64,000 bases of DNA. Source: an uncultured archaeon. GTDB lineage: Archaea; Asgardarchaeota; Lokiarchaeia; Sigyniarchaeales; SOKP01. The position numbers and the translations under genes are program-made. Numbering within the stretch: position 1 is the stretch's first letter; each line of letters begins with the position of its first letter. Below are positions 2,669 through 15,592 of this stretch, piece after piece. The notes below the pieces were generated by a model. The model made no database searches. It saw nothing but the letters and a program-made list of their open reading frames with translations, and was not told where the DNA came from. The stretch lies in the NCBI GenBank assembly GCA_964583985.1, contig CAZOYD010000011.1:1-64000 (forward strand), written 5' to 3'.

Positions 2669-5419
2669 TTATTCTGCATACATGTATTCTTCTGATACGT
2701 TCTTCTTGCTTTTATCAAGAAAGTATGGTTCGACTATGGATGTTATTTGCTTAAAATCATAATGGAGAGGATCAATTGCTTTTAAGCGACAAACTGTCGA
2801 GCATCTTCCACATCCTTTACAGATAGCGGGATTAATGTATGCTTTCTTCGTAGAAATGCTCACATCTTCATACTCTTGTTTTAAATCGACAAGTGTGATT
2901 GCTTTAAATTGGCAAACTTCAGCACATTTCCCGCAACCATTGCACTTTTCAATATTTACTATCATATCCTTGAAAAAGCACTCAATAGAGAGGAAAACCG
3001 ACAACATCTCTAATTTTGTGGTAGATATTTCATGGAGATTTAAAAATCTGCTGGCTCTCCCCGCTGCTGCATTTGCTTCTAAAATCGAATCTTGAACATT
3101 TTTTGGCCATTGAGCACAGCCACATATAAAAATACCATGAGAAGATAAATCTAAAGGTCTTAATTTTTTATGAGCTTCAATGAAAAAGCCATTATCATCG
3201 ATATTAACTTTTAATTTTGATGCAAGATCGGGTATATCTTCAGGAGGAATCATGGGTGTAGATAAAATAACAAGATCAGTCTCAAATGTAATAATTTCTT
3301 TATTGTTAGTGATACTAGGCACTTTTATTTCATATTTCTCAGGATTGTCGTTAATTTTAGTAACATATGGAATAGTTGTCAAATCATATTTTAGATAGTC
3401 AGCGATTTTTTTTCTTTTGCTCACATATTGTTCAAATTCCTTTTTAGCCATGTGTAATTCTCTAAAAAGGACTATAATCTTTAATTCAGGCTTTAATTTT
3501 TTTAAGATATTAATGTTTTTTATGGTATTACTGCAACATATATTAGAACAATAGGAGTATCCACCCTTCTGTCGCGCATTTACGCACATTATTATTGTGA
3601 TATGTTCAATCTTATCAAGCATGTCACTTTTCCCTTCTTTTAATCGCTCTTCTAATTCTAATTGGGTTATTACTTGCTTATTTTCCTCATTATATTGAAA
3701 TAGACCTTGAGGTTTGAATTCTTTACTCCCTGTTGCTACTATAACCGTACCTACATCAAAATTAATTTCTTTTTCTTGACTGCGTATTTTTACATGATAA
3801 TTTCCCAATGACCCTTCTAGCTTCTCTATTGAAGAGTTAAGAAAGACCCTAATCTTTTCATTGTTTGATACTAGTTCGATCTTTTCCTCCATAAATTTTG
3901 ATGCTTTTTGTTGAGTTGGATAAATCAAGTTGAGATGAGTCAAATTTCCTCCTAATTTATCTTCCCTTTCAACTAAAATAGTTTCAAATCCTTGATTTCC
4001 GATGTTTATTGCGGCAGTCATTCCTGATATGCCACCTCCAATTATTAATGTTCGAGGAATAATCTTGATTAATTCTTCCTCAGGTCTGGATTCAATCTCT
4101 TTATCAACTATTTGTGTGTATCTCGCAGGGCTCAAAAATGTAGAAATTTGAGAGGCAACCCCACTCGCATTTGAAACGGTCTCAGCAATCACCATTGGAC
4201 CTTGACAAAAGCCACATAAGTACACTCCATCTTTAGTTGATAGTGATTTGTCAAAATATGAAGAGTCTTGAAAAAAACCGAATTTATCAACATTAATACC
4301 CATAATTTCAGCTAATTCTCTTGTACCACGAGAAGGGACTAAAGGTGCTGCCAGGACCACTAAATTTGCAATATAAATCTTTCCTAGTTCCCCTGTTCTT
4401 AAATCATCATATTTAACAATTATATCATGAGAGCTTGGTACTTCTTCTATGGAATTAATGTTAGAATTGAAATAGTTTATACCATAATCTAATTGAGCTT
4501 TCTTGGTATATTCATAAAAATTTTTACCAAATACCCTAATATTATGTCGAAATATAGAAACTTGTGAGTCTTGAGCATACATTTTCGTTAAAACCGCATC
4601 CTTAGTCGTATACATGCAACATGCTCTCGAGCAATAGGGAATATCGTCACCCAAATAACTGGATCCAGCGCATTGAATAAATGCGATACTTTTTGGTTCT
4701 GTCTCATCACTGGGTCTTAGAATTTGGTTTCCAAATGGTCCTGTTGGGCTAAGAATCCTTTCATATTCTAAAGCATTCACGACGTTCTTGTATTGATAAC
4801 CCCATTTCGAAGATAATCTTTGTCCTAGCATTTCATATCCCGTCGCAATCACAATTGCACCGACGTTAAATTCAATATTTTTTGGTTTTTGTTCGAAGTC
4901 AATTGCTTCATTCTTACAGACTTTTTCACAGACTCGACATACATTCCTATTAAGATAAAGACAGAGTTCTGGATCAATCATGTACACAGGAGGAATGGCT
5001 TGGGGGAATGGTATGTAAATAGATTTTCTCTTTCCCAAGTTCATATCAAATAAATTGGGGGCTTCCACCTTGGGGCATTTTGTTGCACAATCGCCGCATC
5101 CTTTACATCTTGCTTCGTTCACGAATCGTGGATTCTTTTGGATAATAACATTAAAATCTCCTGCCTTCCCTGAAACTGTTTTAACCTCAGATAATGTATA
5201 AAGATTAATATTAGGATTTCGATATATTGCAATCATTTTTGGAGCTAATACACATAAACTACAGTCGTTTGAAGGAAACAACTTGTCAAATTGTGCCATG
5301 TGCCCTCCAATATATGCTTCTTTTTCAACAAGATGAACTTTAAATCCAAGTTCAGTGAGATCTAGTGAAACTTGGATTCCGGCTATGCCACCGCCTATTA
5401 CTAAAACAGATCCTTCCAT
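2669..5419 (-). CDS. hdrA: HdrA-like flavoprotein with two FAD modules, lacking the internal CxCG domain
   Basis: Two GGG(I/V)xG FAD motifs, DCSLC, IQCAGS..CSRACC and C-terminal 2x[4Fe-4S]; close paralog of 6115..9201; start set at ATG 5419. Confidence 0.85.
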   Translation of the reverse strand: MEGSVLVIGGGIAGIQVSLDLTELGFKVHLVEKEAYIGGHMAQFDKLFPSNDCSLCVLAPKMIAIYRNPNINLYTLSEVKTVSGKAGDFNVIIQKNPRFVNEARCKGCGDCATKCPKVEAPNLFDMNLGKRKSIYIPFPQAIPPVYMIDPELCLYLNRNVCRVCEKVCKNEAIDFEQKPKNIEFNVGAIVIATGYEMLGQRLSSKWGYQYKNVVNALEYERILSPTGPFGNQILRPSDETEPKSIAFIQCAGSSYLGDDIPYCSRACCMYTTKDAVLTKMYAQDSQVSIFRHNIRVFGKNFYEYTKKAQLDYGINYFNSNINSIEEVPSSHDIIVKYDDLRTGELGKIYIANLVVLAAPLVPSRGTRELAEIMGINVDKFGFFQDSSYFDKSLSTKDGVYLCGFCQGPMVIAETVSNASGVASQISTFLSPARYTQIVDKEIESRPEEELIKIIPRTLIIGGGISGMTAAINIGNQGFETILVEREDKLGGNLTHLNLIYPTQQKASKFMEEKIELVSNNEKIRVFLNSSIEKLEGSLGNYHVKIRSQEKEINFDVGTVIVATGSKEFKPQGLFQYNEENKQVITQLELEERLKEGKSDMLDKIEHITIIMCVNARQKGGYSYCSNICCSNTIKNINILKKLKPELKIIVLFRELHMAKKEFEQYVSKRKKIADYLKYDLTTIPYVTKINDNPEKYEIKVPSITNNKEIITFETDLVILSTPMIPPEDIPDLASKLKVNIDDNGFFIEAHKKLRPLDLSSHGIFICGCAQWPKNVQDSILEANAAAGRASRFLNLHEISTTKLEMLSVFLSIECFFKDMIVNIEKCNGCGKCAEVCQFKAITLVDLKQEYEDVSISTKKAYINPAICKGCGRCSTVCRLKAIDPLHYDFKQITSIVEPYFLDKSKKNVSEEYMYAE

Positions 5420-5660
5420 AATAATAAAATACCTCAAATTATGTTTTTATAAAATAAGCTGATTCTTAACAAATCAGTCTGATATTTTCTACTATTCTAA
5501 AAATAATGATAATCGATTATATAAATATTATCCTTACAATTTGCTAAATTTTGATCATTAGTTCATGAATTATTAATTTTTTTAGACAAATATCTAATTT
5601 TTGTTAAAAAAAGTGATCATTCAAGAATAAAATAATTGATATAGAGAACCAACTTTTGTA

Positions 5661-6098
5661 TTAGAGTACTTTTAGAGGTCCTAATTCTTTAATTTCATTT
5701 GTGAATTCTGTAATTACCTCTGCGAACCTTTTGCCCTCCGAGGCGCTAATCCATTCTAACCTGATCCTTTTTTGATTTATCCCAAGTTGTTTAATTAAAA
5801 TCTCATGTAATCTTTCAAATCTTTCCTTAGCATACTCATTTCCAGTTATATAATGACAATCTCCTATATGACAACCCGTAATTATGACCCCATCGGCTCC
5901 ATCTTTTAACGCTTTTATTACAAAAGAAGGATCGACTCTTCCAGAACACATTACCCTGACAATTCGAATATTAGGAGGATATTGAAAACGAGATACACCC
6001 GCTAAATCTGCTCCAGCATAAGAACACCAATTACAACAAAATGCTAAGATTTCTGGATTAAAACCAGGAAATTTTTCCTTCGATTTAGTTTTTGACAT
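5661..6098 (-). CDS. mvhD: MvhD [2Fe-2S] subunit, cysteine form
   Basis: [40 protein letters not shown]; ATG 6098 (TTG 6113 is an alternative). Confidence 0.93.
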
Positions 6099-6114
6099 CT
6101 TTTTTCTCTCCAAG

Positions 6115-9100
6115 TTATGTTTCTAATAAAAGTGATTCAATCATTGCTGTTATTTGATCAAAATCATACTGTTTTATAGATATCGCCCCGTTTGGGCAAG
6201 TAGCTGCACATGTACCACAACCCTTGCATAATGCAGAATTGATAAACGATTTTTTCACTATAAGATTTATGTCTTCATATTCTGTTATTGAATCTAAAAG
6301 ATCAATTGCGTTGTACGGACACACTGATGCGCACTTTCCACAGCCAATACAGTTTAGTGGATTTACTTCTGCAACAATACCCGAAGTGGTAATTTCTTTA
6401 GCGCTTAAAAATCTACTGGCTCTTCCGGCAGCACCATTTGCCTGAGATATTGTATCTTGGACATTTTTTGGCCATTGGGCACAACCACAAAGAAAAATTC
6501 CTTCGGTGGCAAAATCGAGTGGTCTTAATTTAACATGAGCTTCGAGGAAAAATCCATTTTTATCTAATGGTACCTTTAACATTTTAGCTAGATCCATCAA
6601 ATTGTCGGGTGGTACCATTGGAGTGGATAAAACGATCAAATCCGTATCAAATTCCAAAAAGTCTTGAAGGTTCGTATCATAGATTTTTATCTCATACTTT
6701 TCTGGAGATTTACTCTTTCTTTTTACAATGGGTAAGTTATCCAAGTCATAACGTAAAAAAATTGCATCTTTTCTACGTTCTCGGTAATAATCTTCATATC
6801 TTTTTTTAGCCATTTGAAGATCTCGATAAAGAACGACAAGTTCAATTTCAGGTTTGAGCTTTTTTAAAAGTCCAACATTCTTGATTGAATTACCACAACA
6901 AATATTTGAACAGTAAGTTATTCCCTCATTTTGTCTGGCATTCACGCATAAAATCGTAGTAATACGTTTGATACCATCAAGCCAAGCGGTTCCTTTTTCT
7001 TTTAATAATTGTTCTAATTCAAGTTGAGTGATAACATTCTTATTTTCCTTTTTATATTGGAAAAGATCTTTAGGTTTATGCTCTATAGCTCCAGTAGCAA
7101 CTATTATCGTTCCAATACTTAATTCTTGAGTTTTATCTTTGGAAACTTCCACGGAGACGATATAATTACCCACGTATCCTTTTACTTTCTTTATTTTAGC
7201 ATTTAAGAACGTCTGAATATTCTCATTTTTCTCGATTTTTTCAATAGTCTGATTAAGAAAATCTGATGCATTTTGTTCGATCGGGTACAAATCGTTTAGA
7301 TAATTCAAATTTCCCCCAAGAACGGGTTCTTTTTCTACAATAAAAGTTTTGAATCCTTGATTGGCAAGATTTAGAGCCGCACTCATTCCTGCAACTCCGC
7401 CACCAATAATTAGTGCTGTAGGAGTGATCTTTAACAGTTCTTCATTTAGTGGTTTTAACAATCGTGCTTTAGCAACCGCCATTCTAATTAAATCTTTAGC
7501 TTTTTGTGTTGCCGCTTCCGCATCCCCCATGTGAACCCAAGAACACTGGTCTCGAATGTTGACCATCTCAAACAAATATTTATTCAAACCCGCTTCCACG
7601 CATGTTTCTTGAAATAATGGTTCATGAGTTCGTGGAGTGCACGATGCCACGATAAATCTATTTAACTTATTATTAATAATTAATTCTTTAATCCTTGCTT
7701 GGCTATCTGAGGAACATGAGTAAAGATTGTCTTCACATTGAATTACATTTGGTAAAGCTCGTACGTATTCAGCTAATAAAGGGACGTGAACATATTTACC
7801 TATATTAATTCCACAATGGCAAATAAGAACGCCTATTCTTGGTTCATCACCGTCTTTTATACCTAAGTCGGGGATTTCTATATCTTTGGCTTTTATTTGC
7901 TCAAACCTAACTGAGCTTAAGTAAGCAGCGACTTGTCCGGCTACACCACTCGAGCCTGCAACTGTTTCTGGTATGTCCATTGGACCTTGACAAAAGCCGC
8001 ATAGAAATATGCCCTCTTTTGTTGATTTTGACTTGTTAAAATAATCTTGTTCTTTAAAAAAGTTGTATTCATCTATTTCAATTCCTAATATTTCAGATAA
8101 TTGCTCGGTTCCAGATGAATGAACCAATGGAGTAGCTAAAACCACCAAGTCGGCTTCAAAATCATCAAATTCTCCCGTTTTTAAATTTTCATAATGAATT
8201 ATCAAGTTCTTCGTTTCAGCATTTTCCGCTATCTTACTAATTTTTGTTTGGAAATATTTTACCCCATATTCTTTTTGGGCTCTCTGTATAAATTCATAAA
8301 AATTCTTTCCAAAGGCACGTATATCATGTCTGAAAACGAAGCATTTTGATTTTTCTGAGTGTTCAGAAGTTATTATTGCTTCTTTAGCCGTGTACATGCA
8401 ACACACACTGGAACAATACGAGACTCCTTCGTGTAGATCTCTTGAGCCCGCACATTGAATAAACGCAATTTTCTCCGGTTCAACGTGATCAGATGGTCTT
8501 AAGACATGACCACCAAAAGGTCCCGAGGCACATAATATTCTTTCATATTCTAAAGCGCTTACAACATTCTCAAAACAATATCCCCATCTCGATGATAATT
8601 TTTCAGCGGGCATATCGAATCCAGTAGCAACCACGATTGCGCCAACGTTGATCTTTATTTCTTGTTCTACTTGTTCAAAATTAATTGCGTCCGCTTGGCA
8701 TACCTTTGCACAAACTCCACATACGCCCTTAGTCAGTTTAAGACAAATTTCAGGATCTATGAGATAAATTGGAGGAACAGCTTGAGGAAATGGTATATAA
8801 GCAGATTTTCTTTTGCCTAAATTCATATCAAATAAGTTTGGGACTTGAATTTTAGGACATTTGGCAGCACAATCTCCACAACCCTTGCATTTCGTCTCAT
8901 CAATATAGCGAGGTTTCTTAATTATTGTTGCCATAAAATCACCTGGTTTACCAGAGATTTCCTTTACCTCATGATAGGTCATTAACTCGATATTCGGGTT
9001 TCTGAACACTTCAACCATCTTGGGAGCCAATATGCATAATGAGCAATCATTTGTGGGGAAGGTTTTGTCAAGTTGAGCCATTCGACCTCCAATAGAAGGG

Positions 9101-9201
9101 TTTCTCTCCACGAGGTAAACTTTAAACCCTAATTCTGTGAGATCAAGGCTTGTTTGAATACCAGCTATACCCCCACCTATCACTAAAACGCTTCCTTGCA
9201 T
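6115..9201 (-). CDS. hdrA: Large HdrA-like protein with two FAD modules, cysteine form
   Basis: FAD module 1 (GGGIAG, TNDCSLC, ferredoxin insert), internal [13 protein letters not shown] / ASCTPRTHE / RDQCSW domain, FAD module 2, C-terminal 2x[4Fe-4S]. Confidence 0.92.
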
Positions 9202-10469
9202 TATTTAGACTCCTTCTCCTTCTGCCTTGGTTTTTTAACCTTAATATGATTAACTAAAAATTCGGAAAAATCTAATATCTCAATGGATGCTATATCCTCA
9301 AAATCATTTTGAAGACAGCTCAAGTGAATGTTACACTTAGGACAAGAAGTAACCATTATGGTTCCTGCTTCTTTTGCTTCTAACATTCTCGTATATCTCA
9401 ACGCTTTTGATTTTTCATTACAATTCATCCAAGAATTCACTCCACAACATAATGAGTTTTTCTTGTTATGCTTCATTTCATTAAATTTATAACCTAATTT
9501 TTCCAATTCCTTAAAAATTTCTCTGGTCATCTCGGTGATGTCGTTCTCTTTGGGTAAAAATCTACTCAATCTACATGGATCGTGATAAGTGAAGGGGGTG
9601 ATTTCTTCGGATTTTTTAGGTTCTGCAAATTCAATATTTCCGTTCTTCCAATTATCATAAATATATTCTATGATATGCTTTACTTCAAACTTTGATTCAA
9701 ATTCCTCAAATATTTGAGCATAATCGATCTTAAAAGTTCTGTAACATTCAGCGCAAGCTGTTACTATCTTAGATATACCGGCCCTTTCAAATTTTTCGAT
9801 ATTCCTCTCTCCTAACTTGATGAAAGTTTTTAATTTGCCTTGCCCCCAATAAATGTCGTGTCCACAACAAGTTTCATCCTTTAAGACGACAATTGGTTCA
9901 TTTTCGACCTTACACATGATTTCCAAGGTACTTTTTGCTATTGTATCTAAACCTTCAAATTCAAAATTAAAAAATGGTAAACAACCTACATAATATAAAA
10001 TGGTTCCTTTCTCTGATATGTTACAACCTTTTGGAACCCAATCCATGTTTCTTTCGGGATTGATGTATGGTCTACTCATTATTTCTGAAAGTGTAGTGTA
10101 TATTCCTTTATGAGCTAAATATTCGTCAGCGGATTGATCCTTATGTCGCATTAAATATCGTGCAGTTCTAACAATCTCAGCAAAATTTATTTCTTCGGGG
10201 CAATCCTTCAGACATTGGTTGCAGGTCAAGCAATCCCATAAATCACCACTATCAAGAACTTTTTCTTCAAATCCCTCTAAGATAAGCTGAATTATTTTAC
10301 TTGGAGTATATTTCTGTACCTTACTCAATTGACACACGCCTGAACAACGACCACATTGATAACACCTTTTTAAAAGATCCCGTAAATTTGGATCATAAAT
10401 TTTATCAAGATATTTTAGGGTATCACCAAATAGTTTTTTCCGCTCTAAATCTCTTTTTGATTCTGTTAT
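9201..10469 (-). CDS. HdrD/GlpC-like Fe-S oxidoreductase (2x[4Fe-4S] plus two CCG domains); probable ATA start
   Basis: Frame is open upstream of the track start (10337) and encodes CYQCGRCSGVC; then CLTCNQCLKDCP, ETCCG, TACAEC, YHDPC, LCCG, TSCPKC; AGGAG lies 6 nt before ATA 10469. Confidence 0.85.
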   Translation of the reverse strand: MTESKRDLERKKLFGDTLKYLDKIYDPNLRDLLKRCYQCGRCSGVCQLSKVQKYTPSKIIQLILEGFEEKVLDSGDLWDCLTCNQCLKDCPEEINFAEIVRTARYLMRHKDQSADEYLAHKGIYTTLSEIMSRPYINPERNMDWVPKGCNISEKGTILYYVGCLPFFNFEFEGLDTIAKSTLEIMCKVENEPIVVLKDETCCGHDIYWGQGKLKTFIKLGERNIEKFERAGISKIVTACAECYRTFKIDYAQIFEEFESKFEVKHIIEYIYDNWKNGNIEFAEPKKSEEITPFTYHDPCRLSRFLPKENDITEMTREIFKELEKLGYKFNEMKHNKKNSLCCGVNSWMNCNEKSKALRYTRMLEAKEAGTIMVTSCPKCNIHLSCLQNDFEDIASIEILDFSEFLVNHIKVKKPRQKEKESK

Positions 10470-10482
10470 TGCTTTCTCCTCT

Positions 10483-11595
10483 CTAAGATATATTTTTCAT
10501 GAATCGTTCCTTTCGATTAACTTTTGATTTTGAAAATTGAGCGATAAGATTCATCATTTCTTTCTTTTTATCATCGCTAATGTCTTTTTGTCTTATTACA
10601 CCGGCGTTTAATACTTTAGTAAATAAAGCTTTTCCTTTTTTAGTTCGAGGAATAACAGTCGTATATTTTTCAGGAGAGCCTAATCCCCCAAAAGAAATGT
10701 CAGAATATATGTTCGTAAAATCAGCACAAGCATTACATGCCGCCCTCATGTATTTTTCTAAATGATTAAATGGGACATGAATTATCTTTTCTCCATTACC
10801 TTGATTTTTTAGAGTAAAAATAACATCTTCCTTGATGTTTATTTTTTTAATATCGTTAAATTTAATATTAAAATCTTTTTCGAACCTTTCAATTTGAGAT
10901 TTTTCGAAAAAGAAATTTTCATAACAAAATAATCCTAAACAAACTTCTACATTTTGTGAAGGTGTAACGCCTAAATCTTTCATGCAAGCAATTGTATATA
11001 GCTGACAGGGAGTCCCAACCACGGCCAGTTTTTTAAATTTATAATGATTTAATTTTGGAATGGAATGGGTATAAGTACAAAACTTTTGGATCTCATCCAA
11101 TTGAGGGGTAATGTCTAGTCTTACTCCCGAAGCTTTTAATAAATCATACTTGCTATCCGCATATGCAGCTTCTCTTGAAAATGGAGCCTCTGTTCTGGAA
11201 ACTACAGCACCATCAATTTGTTTACTTTCTATTAAAAAGTTAATGATTGAATTTACTACACCACCATCTGTTCCATATTCTAAGAATTCTTTATCTGTTG
11301 CCTGACAAGAATAAATATTATCGAAATTTCCTAAAGGCATGGATGTGTAATCAGAAAAATTATACGTTTTGTTTAATTCTTCATCTAAAATATGAGTTTG
11401 AGGACAAATATAATAACATATCCCACATTCCAAGCATTTATCTTTATTAATATATACTGGAGGTGAATATTGATCCTTAAATCCAATAATATTAAATTCT
11501 GCTGAGCTACAAAAACTAACACAGCCTCCACATTCTTGACAAATGCCTTTTTCATGTACTTCCTTTATTAAATCTTGAAATGATTTAGTGTTCAT
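10483..11595 (-). CDS. FrhB/FdhB-family (F420-binding-type) subunit with N-terminal ferredoxin
   Basis: CQECGGCVSFC, CLECGICYYICP, TDGGVV, VGTPCQ, GLFC, CNAC.DFT...DISFG. Confidence 0.9.
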   Translation of the reverse strand: MNTKSFQDLIKEVHEKGICQECGGCVSFCSSAEFNIIGFKDQYSPPVYINKDKCLECGICYYICPQTHILDEELNKTYNFSDYTSMPLGNFDNIYSCQATDKEFLEYGTDGGVVNSIINFLIESKQIDGAVVSRTEAPFSREAAYADSKYDLLKASGVRLDITPQLDEIQKFCTYTHSIPKLNHYKFKKLAVVGTPCQLYTIACMKDLGVTPSQNVEVCLGLFCYENFFFEKSQIERFEKDFNIKFNDIKKINIKEDVIFTLKNQGNGEKIIHVPFNHLEKYMRAACNACADFTNIYSDISFGGLGSPEKYTTVIPRTKKGKALFTKVLNAGVIRQKDISDDKKKEMMNLIAQFSKSKVNRKERFMKNIS

Positions 11596-13093
11596 CTTTA
11601 TTCTCTTTCAAATTTATTGTTTTACAACTTGTTCGTTTAGTTCCGCCTATTCTTTCTACTAAAAATAGTCCGGGCTTTACATCTTTTAAACTCTGGGATT
11701 CGATTAATCCTGCTTTAATTATTTCATTATATAATTTATCAGCTTCTTTCGATCTCGTTAATACAGAAGACCATCCATCTTGCGACCCAATCGATCCTAC
11801 AGAAATATCGGCATAATCCGAAGTCAAATCTTCACAAAAATGACAATTATGACGAGCATAGCTCTTGACATCATTTAAAGGAACGTCTAATTGTTCGCCA
11901 GATTTTATTTTAATGATGAATTTACCGCCCCCGATGTTCATTTTTGTCAATTCATTCACATCTTTATCAAATTTCTCTTTTGCTAACTTTACAATTCCAT
12001 CGTAAGGAAATGCTTCCATGCAAAATAAACCGATCTTGTATTTAATATTTTTAAAAAAGGGTAAACCACTTGGATACAGCATTCCTTTTCCCAGAGCTTT
12101 CATCATACAAGGTACTCCAATAAACGCAATTCGTTCATATTTTGTTGCTTGATCAATAATTTTCAAAGAAGGTGAATTGGCGTATTTTGTACCTCCCGTT
12201 TTATATAAATCTTTTACATCATCAATGATGACAGGTTCAGGCTTCCATAATTCTTTTGAATGCTGTACTGCAACAATGGCATCTACTAATTTGTTCTTCA
12301 GCAAATATTCGGCGATTGTCGTTACTACGCCTCCATCTTGTCGTACTTTTACAATGTCTTCATTTGTAGTGCTTCCAGTATAAGCGTTAAAATATGCTCC
12401 AATTTTATCTGACCAATTCAAATCTTTATCTAATTTCTTGATTGCTTCATTAGCTTGGTCAATAGAAAAGGAACGGGGACAAACACTAAAACACAAGCCA
12501 CACTTCATGCAAGTTTCATCATCTATATTTAAAGTATCAGCATCAACTGTAATTGCATTTACAGGACATATAGCAGAACACCATCCACATTGACAACAAA
12601 CACCCGCATCAAACACGATTGAAACGGGTTCAAAATAACTCTCCAAAAAATCATTTGGTAACTCTTTCGCTTGATAGCGATAAAAATATTCCTTGACTTC
12701 GACTTGCTTCTCTTCGCCTTTTATCTTTTTAGTGACCATTTTTGTTTTGACTTCAATCTGCTCCTCTACATACCCCTGTTCTTTCAAGTAGATTACATCA
12801 CGAATGACATTTTTGGCGGGAAATTGGGTAATTTCAGCTGCAATTTCTGAAAGGAATAATGGATTTTTCCCATGAAGTTTTTCAAGCACAATTTTCCGTT
12901 CTGTTTCAGCATCAATCATAGCATCTAAAATTTCATAAAATTCGTTTTCAGAATATTTTCCCGTCTTCAAAATTTCATCCTTTGCTTCAAAAAATGCTCT
13001 TACTTGAAAATTTGCAGAAGCAGCATAGGTTGCTTCCATCAATTCTTTAAGAGATATATCTCCAAAATTGTTGTTCTTTTCTATTGAGACCAT
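11585..13093 (-). CDS. FrhB/FdhB-family subunit with ~150-aa N-terminal helical/winged-helix-like extension
   Basis: CCQCGWCSAICP, CMKCGLCFSVCP, QDGGVVT, GTKY, GVPC, GLFCME, CHFCED...DISVG; ATG 13093. Confidence 0.9.
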   Translation of the reverse strand: MVSIEKNNNFGDISLKELMEATYAASANFQVRAFFEAKDEILKTGKYSENEFYEILDAMIDAETERKIVLEKLHGKNPLFLSEIAAEITQFPAKNVIRDVIYLKEQGYVEEQIEVKTKMVTKKIKGEEKQVEVKEYFYRYQAKELPNDFLESYFEPVSIVFDAGVCCQCGWCSAICPVNAITVDADTLNIDDETCMKCGLCFSVCPRSFSIDQANEAIKKLDKDLNWSDKIGAYFNAYTGSTTNEDIVKVRQDGGVVTTIAEYLLKNKLVDAIVAVQHSKELWKPEPVIIDDVKDLYKTGGTKYANSPSLKIIDQATKYERIAFIGVPCMMKALGKGMLYPSGLPFFKNIKYKIGLFCMEAFPYDGIVKLAKEKFDKDVNELTKMNIGGGKFIIKIKSGEQLDVPLNDVKSYARHNCHFCEDLTSDYADISVGSIGSQDGWSSVLTRSKEADKLYNEIIKAGLIESQSLKDVKPGLFLVERIGGTKRTSCKTINLKENKDEH

Positions 13094-13131
13094 GTTTTTC
13101 AAATCTTTTTTTTATTTTAAATTAAACAATA

Positions 13132-13209
13132 TAAAACCCCATCCTTGCGAGGACACGTCATCCTATAACTAATATTTTTTTATAGGATTCATTCTATGGA
13201 GTTGTTTTA
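13132..13209 (-). promoter_or_regulatory. Eukaryote-type (AUGA/GA) SECIS element
   Basis: Minus strand reads TAG-A-ATGAA-TCCTATAA-AAAAATATTAG-TTATAGGA-TGAC: AUGA..GA core (13192-13189 / 13160-13157), perfect 8-bp upper stem, A-rich loop; directly 3' of two genes with in-frame TGA. Confidence 0.85.
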
Positions 13210-13643
13210 ACCTTGGTTTTTGATAATTTTAAACCCTGAGTACTTATCGGATTGGGACCTAAACGTTGGATTTTTTCAAAAGCGTCTTCAACACTTTTAA
13301 CTAATTTCTCTGATTCTGCGCTACTACACCAATACATATTAATCCTTTGATTGCCAAAACCTCTTTTTTCTAAGATATGATTCGCAAACTCAACATGTTT
13401 TTGAGCGGTAAAATTTCCGACCTTAAATTGGCATTCATCTGGTCTTCATCCGACAACCATCACGCCATCAGCGCCATGGTTTATAGAATGAAGCATGTAT
13501 TTGACGTCCACCCTTCCAGTACATCTCACTTTTATAATTTTTACTGATGGGGTATATTTCATTCGAGAGACGCCAGCTAAATCGGCTGCTCCGTAACCTC
13601 ATTTAAGACATGCAAACATTATGATCTTGTATTTGTGTTCCAT
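13194..13643 (-). CDS. mvhD: Selenocysteine-containing MvhD/VhuD (149 aa; Sec15, Sec66); absent from the ORF track
   Basis: [27 protein letters not shown]...VRCTGRVD...GADGVMVVG-U-RPDECQF...WCSSAES...KTTP*; TGAs at 13599-13601 and 13446-13448 align with Cys of the 5661..6098 paralog; GGAGGT SD upstream. Confidence 0.93.
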
Positions 13644-13648
13644 CTTGT

Positions 13649-15592
13649 TTAACCTCCTTCCAATATTCCATTAATTTCAGCAAATAATTGATCATCCCGA
13701 TAATATCGAATATCGATTGCTTGTGTCGGGCAGCATGTTGCACAAATTCCACATCCATCGCAATTTATCTCATCCACGACAGCACCTATAGATTCAACGA
13801 CTTTAATCGCTCCTTTTGGGCATTCCTTTTCACAACGGTTACATGATATGCAGAATTCCTTTGTAACTTCCGCTACAATTAATTCCAAATCTATTTCTCC
13901 AGCAGAGGTTAACTCTGCAACCTTACTTGCTGCAGCTCTAGCTTGAGAAACGGAATAAGCTATATCTTTTGGTCCTTGAGCGAATCCTGCGATAAAAATC
14001 CCTTTTGTTTTCGTTTCTTGTGGCATTAATCCGAAATGAGATTCTGTTAAAAAGCCGTTTTTATCAGTATCCAAATTGAGAATCTTAGCAATTTGTTGAG
14101 TTCCTTTTGATGGCAATGCTGCAGTAGAAAGAATGACTAAATCGGCGTTAATTTTAATGATTTCATCAGTTAATGATGAATACACCCGAATTTTTACATC
14201 CTTCGTCTCGGGATCTTCAGAAAATTCACCTACTTTTCCGCGAATCATGCGAATGTCAGAATTCTTAGCTCGTTGATAGTATTCTTCAAATCCCTTTTCA
14301 TTCGTTCTGATATCAATATAACATATCGTGATGTTTGCATCCGGAAACTCTTCCTTGAGTAATTTTCCATTTTTAAGCGCTAACATGCAACAAACACCTG
14401 AACAATAGGTACGCTCCGTTTCCCTACTCCCTACGCACTGTATAAACACGATTTCTTTAGGTATCTTTCCATCCGATATTCTACTGACATGACCATCAAG
14501 AGGTCCATTTGGTGCAAGTATTCTTTCCAACTGAGCTTGTGTTATGACGTTTTCGAATTCTCCATAACCATATTCCCCGAAGGGCTCATATATGTCCCAA
14601 CCAGTGGCAATGATTATCGTGCCTACTTTAAAATTTACCTCCTCCGGAATTTGGCTGAAATCAATGGCATGCAATTCGCAAGCTTCAACACAATTGAAAC
14701 ATTCAACACAAGTTTCACGGTTAATATCATAAAGAAATGGGACCGCTTGTCCAAATGAAATATCTATTGTTTTCCGAGCGCCTAAATATTCATCAAAGAA
14801 ATTTGTTGTGTAGGTGGGGCACATTTCTGAACAAGCTCCGCAGCCATTACATTTTTCAGGATCGACGAATCTTGGTTTTTTCTCGACCGTTATCTCGTAA
14901 TTACCCACATATCCCTCAACGCTTTTCACTTCACTATAGCTTAAGATCTCTATGTTTTCATGGCGATTCACATCCAGCATTTTCGGTCCACAAATTCAAA
15001 TGCTACAATCATCTGTTGGGAAGGTTCGGTCCAATTGTGCCATTCTTCCTCCAATAGTTGATTTTTGCTCAACCAAATAGACTTTAATTCCTTGGTTTGC
15101 TAAATCTAACGCAGCATTCATACCAGCAATGCCTCCACCAACCACCAGAGTCGCTTTTTCAACCGGCACGGTTTTGATGGGAATTACTTCTAATCGTCTT
15201 ACTCGTTCAAGCCCACCCTTTATAAGAATTTGTGCCTTTTCAAGAGCGTCCTCATTATTTTCAGTACACCAACTACATTGCTCACGTACATTAACCATTT
15301 GGAAAAAATATGGGCTTAAGCTAGTCTGCTTTATAGACCCCCGATATACTGGTTCATGAGTTCGAGGGGTTCAAGCAGAAGCGATAATTCGATCCAGCTT
15401 TTTTTCCTCGATATCTTTTATTATCTCATTTTGACCGCTTTCAGTACATAAGAATGCATGAGTCTTTGCTACGACCACGTCATCAAATTGTTTTGCGTAT
15501 TCCACTAATTTATTGCAATCAACTTTACTTCGTATATTTATACCTCACTGACATGCATAGTATCCAATCCGATGCTTTTGGGTTTCTTCCAT
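13649..15592 (-). CDS. hdrA: Selenocysteine-containing heterodisulfide reductase subunit A (647 aa; Sec16, Sec74, Sec199)
   Basis: One frame from ATG 15592 to TAA 13649 with TGA at 15545-47 (ACQ-U-GINI), 15371-73 (SA-U-TPRTHE) and 14996-98 (DCSI-U-ICGPK); joins track ORFs 14996..15298 and 13649..14980; GAGGTGA SD upstream. Confidence 0.93.

Follow-up and report, generated by a model that had tools for sequence, protein, structure and literature searches.

In the Asgard archaea, heterodisulfide reductase subunit A (HdrA) and FrhD/VhuD represent the most abundant selenoproteins (ISME J 2024, PMC11227280). In particular, the Lokiarchaeota encode HdrA proteins with up to four selenocysteine (Sec) residues, distributed over five positions and served by one shared SECIS element. 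Their genes are arranged in hdrA-vhuD tandems, in which the single SECIS is located after vhuD and UGA is absent as the stop codon of hdrA (Mariotti et al. 2016, PMC4989117). From the text of that paper, taken together with the survey presented here, we infer that the five positions correspond to residues 16, 49, 74 and 199 of the HdrA described below, plus a C-terminal site. The same study, which predates any HdrA structure, considered that the extra Sec positions are not cluster ligands and proposed for these proteins an unusual redox chemistry, with 'multiple catalytic Cys residues'. HdrA entries carrying Sec at YACQX-GINI, SAX-TPRTHEP, FLX-TESG and DCSIX-ICGP (Sec being written as X, and not as U) are also contained in the supplement of the more recent ISME J study (PMC11227280). 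In the literature searched, no experiment was found that demonstrates the insertion of Sec into an Asgard HdrA.

The DNA analysed here, henceforth the window, is a stretch of 64,000 nucleotides from a genome of 3.8 Mb (138 contigs, 31.7% GC), whose closest named relatives are metagenome-assembled genomes (MAGs) of the Promethearchaeota/Promethearchaeia (Lokiarchaeia). It contains what we read, with a probability of roughly 70%, as a hdrA-vhuD selenoprotein bicistron typical of Lokiarchaeia, in which five UGA codons would be decoded as Sec with the help of one SECIS, and in which two of the resulting residues, Sec16 and Sec74 of HdrA, would sit on the iron-sulfur cluster HA3. All the features by which the Lokiarchaeial multi-Sec HdrA-VhuD pair can be recognized in a sequence, namely the UGAs, the downstream vhuD, the Loki-type SECIS and the Sec machinery, are found in this genome.

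The hdrA-vhuD genes and the predicted decoding of their UGA codons

The hdrA gene occupies positions 13649-15592 on the minus strand and consists of 647 codons followed by a TAA stop. When TGA is read as U, exactly three TGAs are enclosed in this single 647-residue frame. Its best solved relatives are 9sfi_A of M. maripaludis (E 1e-202, residues 8-645 aligned with 5-651) and 5odc_A of M. thermolithotrophicus (E 1.5e-194, residues 6-644 aligned with 3-650), both matched end-to-end. This full-length similarity, N-terminal domain included, assigns the protein to the four-domain HdrA type that associates with MvhD, made up of an N-terminal domain, a FAD-binding thioredoxin-reductase fold, an inserted ferredoxin domain and another ferredoxin domain at the C-terminus. 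FAD/NAD-binding (FAD/Rossmann) and 4Fe-4S domains are detected by Pfam at 148-198, 243-306 and 573-627. Moreover, every set of Cys and Sec residues of this type is complete: 14, 16(U), 49 and 74(U) in the N-terminal domain, the pair 196 and 199(U) near the FAD, the C...C-x-x-x-C-C set at 386, 397, 401 and 402, and all four motifs of the CxxCxxCxxxC type (248-258, 295-305, 581-591 and 611-621).

Specifically, UGA codon 16 (15545-15547, minus strand; the CQU motif of ACQ-U-GINI) lies just past strand beta1 of the N-terminal domain and aligns with Cys13 of 5odc_A, while UGA codon 74 (15371-15373, minus strand; SA-U-TPRTHE) is found at the end of strand beta3 and aligns with Cys73 of the same chain. 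UGA codon 199 (14996-14998, minus strand; DCSI-U-ICG) aligns with the X (Sec197) of 9sfi_A and with Cys197 of 5odc_A, and represents the canonical HdrA Sec, the partner of the Cys/Sec pair that would stand beside the bifurcating FAD. A first-pass annotation of the window had pointed to the interval 15371-15547, which is bounded by the U74 and U16 codons, as the seat of two Sec sites additional to the canonical methanococcal one. The alignment to solved HdrAs agrees with it on both counts, since it places codons 16 and 74 inside the N-terminal Fe-S domain and the Sec of the M. maripaludis enzyme opposite codon 199.

In principle, the three TGAs might be true stops, sequencing errors, or Trp or Gly codons of an alternative code, in which case no selenoprotein would be made from the N-terminal part of hdrA. 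Gene callers that apply translation table 11 do split the gene, leaving 13649-14980 (443 aa) as the longest piece. The TGAs, on the other hand, all fall on columns that are invariantly Cys in the five solved HdrAs, with X (Sec) at 199 in the M. maripaludis entry, and Trp never occurs at the recoded columns of the solved homologues. By rough arithmetic, three random codons out of 647 would all hit the approximately 26 invariant-Cys columns with a chance of about 6e-5. In addition, TGA terminates six of the 34 long open frames of the window, which indicates a standard code with Sec as its one exception.

Two further UGAs are found in the adjacent gene, vhuD/mvhD of the FlpD family (13194-13643, minus strand; 149 codons, stop TAG; Pfam PF02662, E 4e-43), which lies on the same strand as hdrA after a gap of only 5 nt, the TAA of hdrA ending at 13649 and the ATG of vhuD being at 13643. 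UGA codon 15 (13599-13601, minus strand) aligns with Cys16 of the MvhD of M. marburgensis, and UGA codon 66 (13446-13448, minus strand) with Cys67 of the same protein. In the M. maripaludis VhuD, 9sfi_K, both positions (Sec15 and Sec66) are matched by its two X (Sec), and in the VhuD proteins of relatives they are occupied by U in 63 of 63 and 62 of 62 cases, respectively.

The vhuD stop codon is followed, beginning 1 nt past it, by a SECIS element of the Loki type, which is eukaryote-like (13158-13192, minus strand). The element is composed of AUGA, a 9-bp stem free of mismatches, an A-rich apical loop of 11 nt that starts with AAAAA, and GA, and a pattern search identified it as the sole element of this kind in the hdrA-vhuD bicistron. 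The same architecture is present after vhuD in 63 of 66 related loci, 57 of which also share the 9-bp stem and the 11-nt loop, and compensatory changes keep stem positions 2-9 paired across relatives. A search of the whole window, SECIS included, against Rfam at gathering thresholds gave no match. Within hdrA itself, near 14248, another hairpin resembling a SECIS contains one mismatch and was rejected as a chance occurrence, comparable patterns being present in just 5 of 70 orthologues. Under the scheme that Mariotti et al. (2016) put forward, the element after vhuD would presumably direct the decoding of all five UGAs, three in hdrA and two in vhuD, from a position 1.8-2.35 kb downstream of those of hdrA.

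The genome also encodes Sec machinery of the archaeal/eukaryal kind. The search covered tRNA-Sec, SepSecS and SelD. A tRNA-Sec with anticodon tca was found on contig C27 (19492-19584), about 70 nt upstream of a SepSecS gene (C27:19656-20957) scoring 466.7 bits, above the cut-off. SelD, of the Sec type, is likewise above its cut-off, and its gene contains one TGA.

Conservation of the multi-Sec HdrA in Lokiarchaeia

The three UGA codons of hdrA are retained across species. In a set of 30 orthologues from as many genomes, U16, U74 and U199 are present without exception (30/30 each) and U49 in 14 of 30; among 76 related HdrAs from named MAGs, U16 is found in 72/74, U74 in 68/74 and U199 in 76/76, with a fourth Sec at position 49 in 45/74. 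When 399 genomes of the phylum were searched, the best 99 matches all proved to belong to the family of the window HdrA (f1), and each of these contains three or four TGAs within residues 1-215, except for two shorter matches, which have two. Taken as a whole, the multi-Sec form of HdrA is present in about a hundred genomes of Lokiarchaeia. The stop codon of the complete related hdrA genes is never TGA: TAA is used in 56 and TAG in 13 of the 69.

Some database translations of orthologues show Trp at these codons, an observation which could speak for TGA as a sense codon of an alternative code. Specifically, W is recorded in public protein databases at positions 16, 74 and 199 of 15 out of 15 close orthologues (P0003-P0017), and at position 49 of six of them. 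These entries are evidently a gene-calling artefact, in which selenoproteins encoded on short contigs were mistranslated under a code where TGA equals Trp, and the W at 16, 74 and 199 means that independent metagenome contigs bear the same TGAs. The codons are in fact kept at the same Cys columns in at least about 70 species-level genomes, in a frame that is otherwise intact, and they are accompanied by a conserved SECIS with compensatory changes and by a genome provided with tRNA-Sec, SepSecS and a Sec-type SelD. In view of this evidence, the explanation by stops, sequencing errors or an alternative code is effectively refuted, and we regard it as extremely improbable. The intact single frame, the Cys columns and the conservation across species uphold the proposal that the three TGAs are Sec codons. 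A practical warning follows for users of public databases, where the products of multi-Sec hdrA genes are stored truncated or with Trp at the Sec codons.

The first-pass annotation had also left to a check of the literature whether the two extra sites were already described. Triple- and quadruple-Sec HdrAs turn out to be catalogued already (Mariotti et al. 2016; ISME J 2024 supplement), and the window hdrA is one more orthologue of this known form, already recorded at the same positions. The two extra Sec sites are real and conserved, but they add nothing new to the selenoprotein catalogue.

Within its own genome, the window gene is one of four HdrA paralogues that use Sec, all of which possess the C-x-U of the Sec16 site and the canonical Sec. 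Sec74 is confined to the window copy, and the other three (C13:36629-38542, C60:15697-17631 and C23:21273-23210) have Cys at 74. Two more full-length paralogues are all-Cys. The paralogue on C23 is visibly trailed by a Sec-type VhuD.

Two further observations concern the family at large. Some orthologues contain an extra in-frame TGA on a Cys of a ferredoxin motif, at column 298 (L067, L106 and L107), 301 (L086 and L090) or 614 (L072 and L094), in the numbering of the window HdrA. These orthologues have five to six Sec per HdrA, and the TGAs concerned map to the inserted or C-terminal ferredoxin domain (CxxCxxCxxxC), at columns that are unambiguous [4Fe-4S] ligand positions. Moreover, Loki-type Sec-HdrA loci are found on contigs titled Maribacter sp. 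(L104), Thermoproteota archaeon (L116) and Deltaproteobacteria bacterium (L122). Mis-binning is the likely origin of these off-lineage titles, or else, in the case of L122, the contig carries a Sec-HdrA that is truly bacterial and has Cys at position 16.

Candidate ligands of the HA3 cluster

According to the structural literature on HdrA, the HA3 cluster of the N-terminal domain acts as a shuttle. The electron that it takes up is the most reducing one of flavin-based bifurcation, and the cluster itself moves with this electron from one site to another. The list of HA3 ligands does not appear in the text of the 2025 Nature, 2026 Nature and 2026 Sci Adv papers. In an alignment of the five solved HdrAs, the only columns of the N-terminal domain that are always Cys are 14, 16, 49 and 74, equivalent to Cys11, Cys13, Cys46 and Cys73 in the numbering of 5ODC, and the N-terminal domain of the M. 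hungatei HdrA has exactly four Cys, aligned with these same columns, which by elimination points to the four positions as the ligands of HA3. The remaining candidates are variable: column 26 reads C/V/C/I and column 106 C/D/D/N in the solved HdrAs, and the Cys of position 87 is missing both from the M. hungatei protein and from the window HdrA. Furthermore, an AF2 model of residues 1-135 (pLDDT 87) superimposes on the solved N-terminal domains with Z 20-22 and an rmsd of 1.4-1.6 A, values reached even with one stray reference in the underlying alignment A1 (the L002 stretch, 18% identity). In the model, Cys14 and Sec16 come after beta1, Cys49 after beta2 and Sec74 after beta3, along one shared edge of the sheet.

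Sec16 and Sec74 would thus represent two of the four universal Cys positions of a flavodoxin-like N-terminal domain. Judging from this alignment, the HA3 [4Fe-4S] cluster of the window HdrA is probably bound by Cys14, Sec16, Cys49 and Sec74, that is, by two thiolates and two selenolates, and in the four-Sec orthologues the balance would shift to one thiolate and three selenolates. The two extra residues differ in strength of assignment, Sec74 being very likely a ligand of HA3, and Sec16 being predicted to act as a ligand or to alternate between ligand and relay. For the fuller picture of a natural, mobile and low-potential [4Fe-4S] shuttle carrying two selenolates here and three in the four-Sec orthologues, with the partner Sec199 as a possible exchangeable fifth ligand or relay, the odds seem to us evenly balanced.

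These considerations bear on what the first-pass annotation had suggested, namely a cluster ligated by two selenolates, which might retune its redox potential, with the cysteines of the CxC, C-TP and CSW motifs as candidate ligands. Elimination over the five solved HdrAs and the fold match lend support to the first idea, with iron ligation itself staying at the level of a prediction. The list of ligands, by contrast, is off: the CSW cysteine (106) cannot be obligatory for ligation, three of the four solved species having D, D or N in its place, and the list had missed Cys49 (FLC-TES), the position that is Sec in the 45 of 74 relatives mentioned above.

A separate observation concerns position 106. 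In about 96 HdrA-like proteins of the bacterial type (P0020-P0122, approximately 564 aa), the Cys196/Cys199 pair is absent, with E and K in its place, and Cys is kept at 14, 16, 49, 74 and 106 in 96 of 96. In the archaeal HdrAs that have the 196/199 pair, D, N or A is frequent at position 106. It may be that the Cys of position 106 and the 196/199 Cys/Sec pair substitute for each other.

VhuD offers a point of comparison. In the MvhD of M. marburgensis, Cys16 is a conserved additional cysteine which is not a ligand (PMC13580544). Members of the family possess five Cys/Sec, and once Cys16 is set apart as additional, elimination predicts that the second Sec of VhuD is a ligand of the [2Fe-2S] cluster. 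If so, the same complex would already offer one case of an Fe-S cluster bound by a selenolate.

A different function can be envisaged for the extra residues, in which Sec16 and/or Sec74 do not bind iron and operate as redox-active selenols engaged in selenylsulfide exchange, for example between Cys14-Sec16 and Cys196/Sec199 near the FAD. Unusual redox chemistry at these sites was indeed what Mariotti et al. (2016) proposed, and for the canonical Cys/Sec pair as well as for MvhD Cys16, the residue with which VhuD Sec15 aligns, the cryo-EM papers of 2026 suggest a relay or unknown-ligand role; one of them (2026 Sci Adv) describes Cys202 and Cys205, equivalent to 196/199 here, as 'additional' cysteines that bind a density of their own. 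Moreover, the crystal structure has been read as showing Cys197 of the partner HdrA as one of the HA3 ligands (Chadwick et al. 2022), which would leave one N-domain position free in that state. A weak local hhalign alignment (E 0.029, probability 1.7%) sets HdrA Sec16 opposite VhuD Sec15/MvhD Cys16, and Sec16 could on this basis be a redox relay. This likeness between the HdrA N-terminal domain and MvhD is, however, non-specific: in fold searches the MvhD chains are recovered with E 7e-3 to 1.6e-2 and TM of about 0.45, and none ranks among the first 50 by Z. A relay is also opposed by the N-terminal domain of M. hungatei, which has no more than four Cys with which to hold a [4Fe-4S] cluster, one that departs from the partner subunit as it moves. 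On balance, a relay function of this kind appears rather unlikely; a hybrid form, with Sec74 as a ligand and Sec16 toggling between ligand and relay, is possible.

Homology between the HdrA N-terminal domain and MvhD/VhuD, from which ligand roles might have been transferred, was retained as a lead only. BLASTP aligned no more than 10 residues (E 1.3), the local hhalign gave the E of 0.029 reported above, and Foldseek placed the MvhD chains among generic alpha/beta folds.

Returning to the proposed selenolate-ligated HA3, what may be new in this locus is that both extra Sec sites fall on likely ligands of a mobile cluster. To our knowledge, natural Fe-S clusters with selenolate ligands have rarely been documented, and no discussion of this reading of HA3 was found in the literature searched. 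If true, it would correct the 2016 statement that the extra Sec residues are not cluster ligands, a view formulated before the structures whose alignment now suggests the opposite. In addition, orthologues with Sec or Cys at 49, paralogues with Cys74 and all-Cys paralogues provide a ready series in which the effect of selenium on potential, stability and ligand exchange could be studied.

Comparison with methanogen enzymes and with the Lokiarchaeota pair

The gene neighbourhood sets the locus apart from the HdrABC-MvhAGD of methanogens. Downstream of the SECIS, all on the minus strand, lie two FrhB/FdhB-like genes (11585-13102 and 10483-11595), a CCG-domain gene (9201-10337), a fused double HdrA of 1028 aa (6115-9201), an all-Cys MvhD (5661-6113) and an HdrA-like gene of 922 aa (2669-5437). 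Genes for hydrogenase subunits were looked for in this cluster (2669-13102) and none is present.

At the level of the proteins, the closest solved counterpart is the methanococcal HdrA, 9sfi_A, which is similarly four-domain and similar over its full length, houses the A3/HA3 cluster in its N-terminal domain and carries its Sec at the canonical site, residue 197, with Cys194 as the other member of the pair. It differs from the window HdrA in having this Sec only, with Cys at columns 16, 49 and 74 and Asp at 106. The methanococcal VhuD (9sfi_K) has two Sec at the same positions as the VhuD of the window; its cluster, in contrast to that of the HdrA N-terminal domain, is [2Fe-2S] and not [4Fe-4S], and its likeness to that domain is weakly supported. 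The HdrAs of the M. thermolithotrophicus HdrABC-MvhAGD complex (5ODC) and of the M. hungatei and M. marburgensis cryo-EM complexes (7BKB and 8RVU) share with the window HdrA the domain order and the Fe-S motifs, including the C-x-G-S-R...C-S-x-x-C-C motif, located here at 386-402. Unlike the window HdrA, these methanogen enzymes are all-Cys.

With the multi-Sec HdrA-VhuD pair of Lokiarchaeota, finally, the correspondence extends to every feature compared. The order of hdrA and vhuD is the same, with a short gap and a common strand, vhuD has two Sec and the hdrA stop is not UGA. A single SECIS of the Loki type follows vhuD, with the 9-bp stem, the 11-nt loop and the AUGA/GA core, and HdrA contains several Sec, with the canonical one always among them. 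There is no structural difference between the two, and the variation concerns the number of Sec residues, the window copy being a three-Sec form with Cys49, and 45 of the 74 relatives four-Sec forms.
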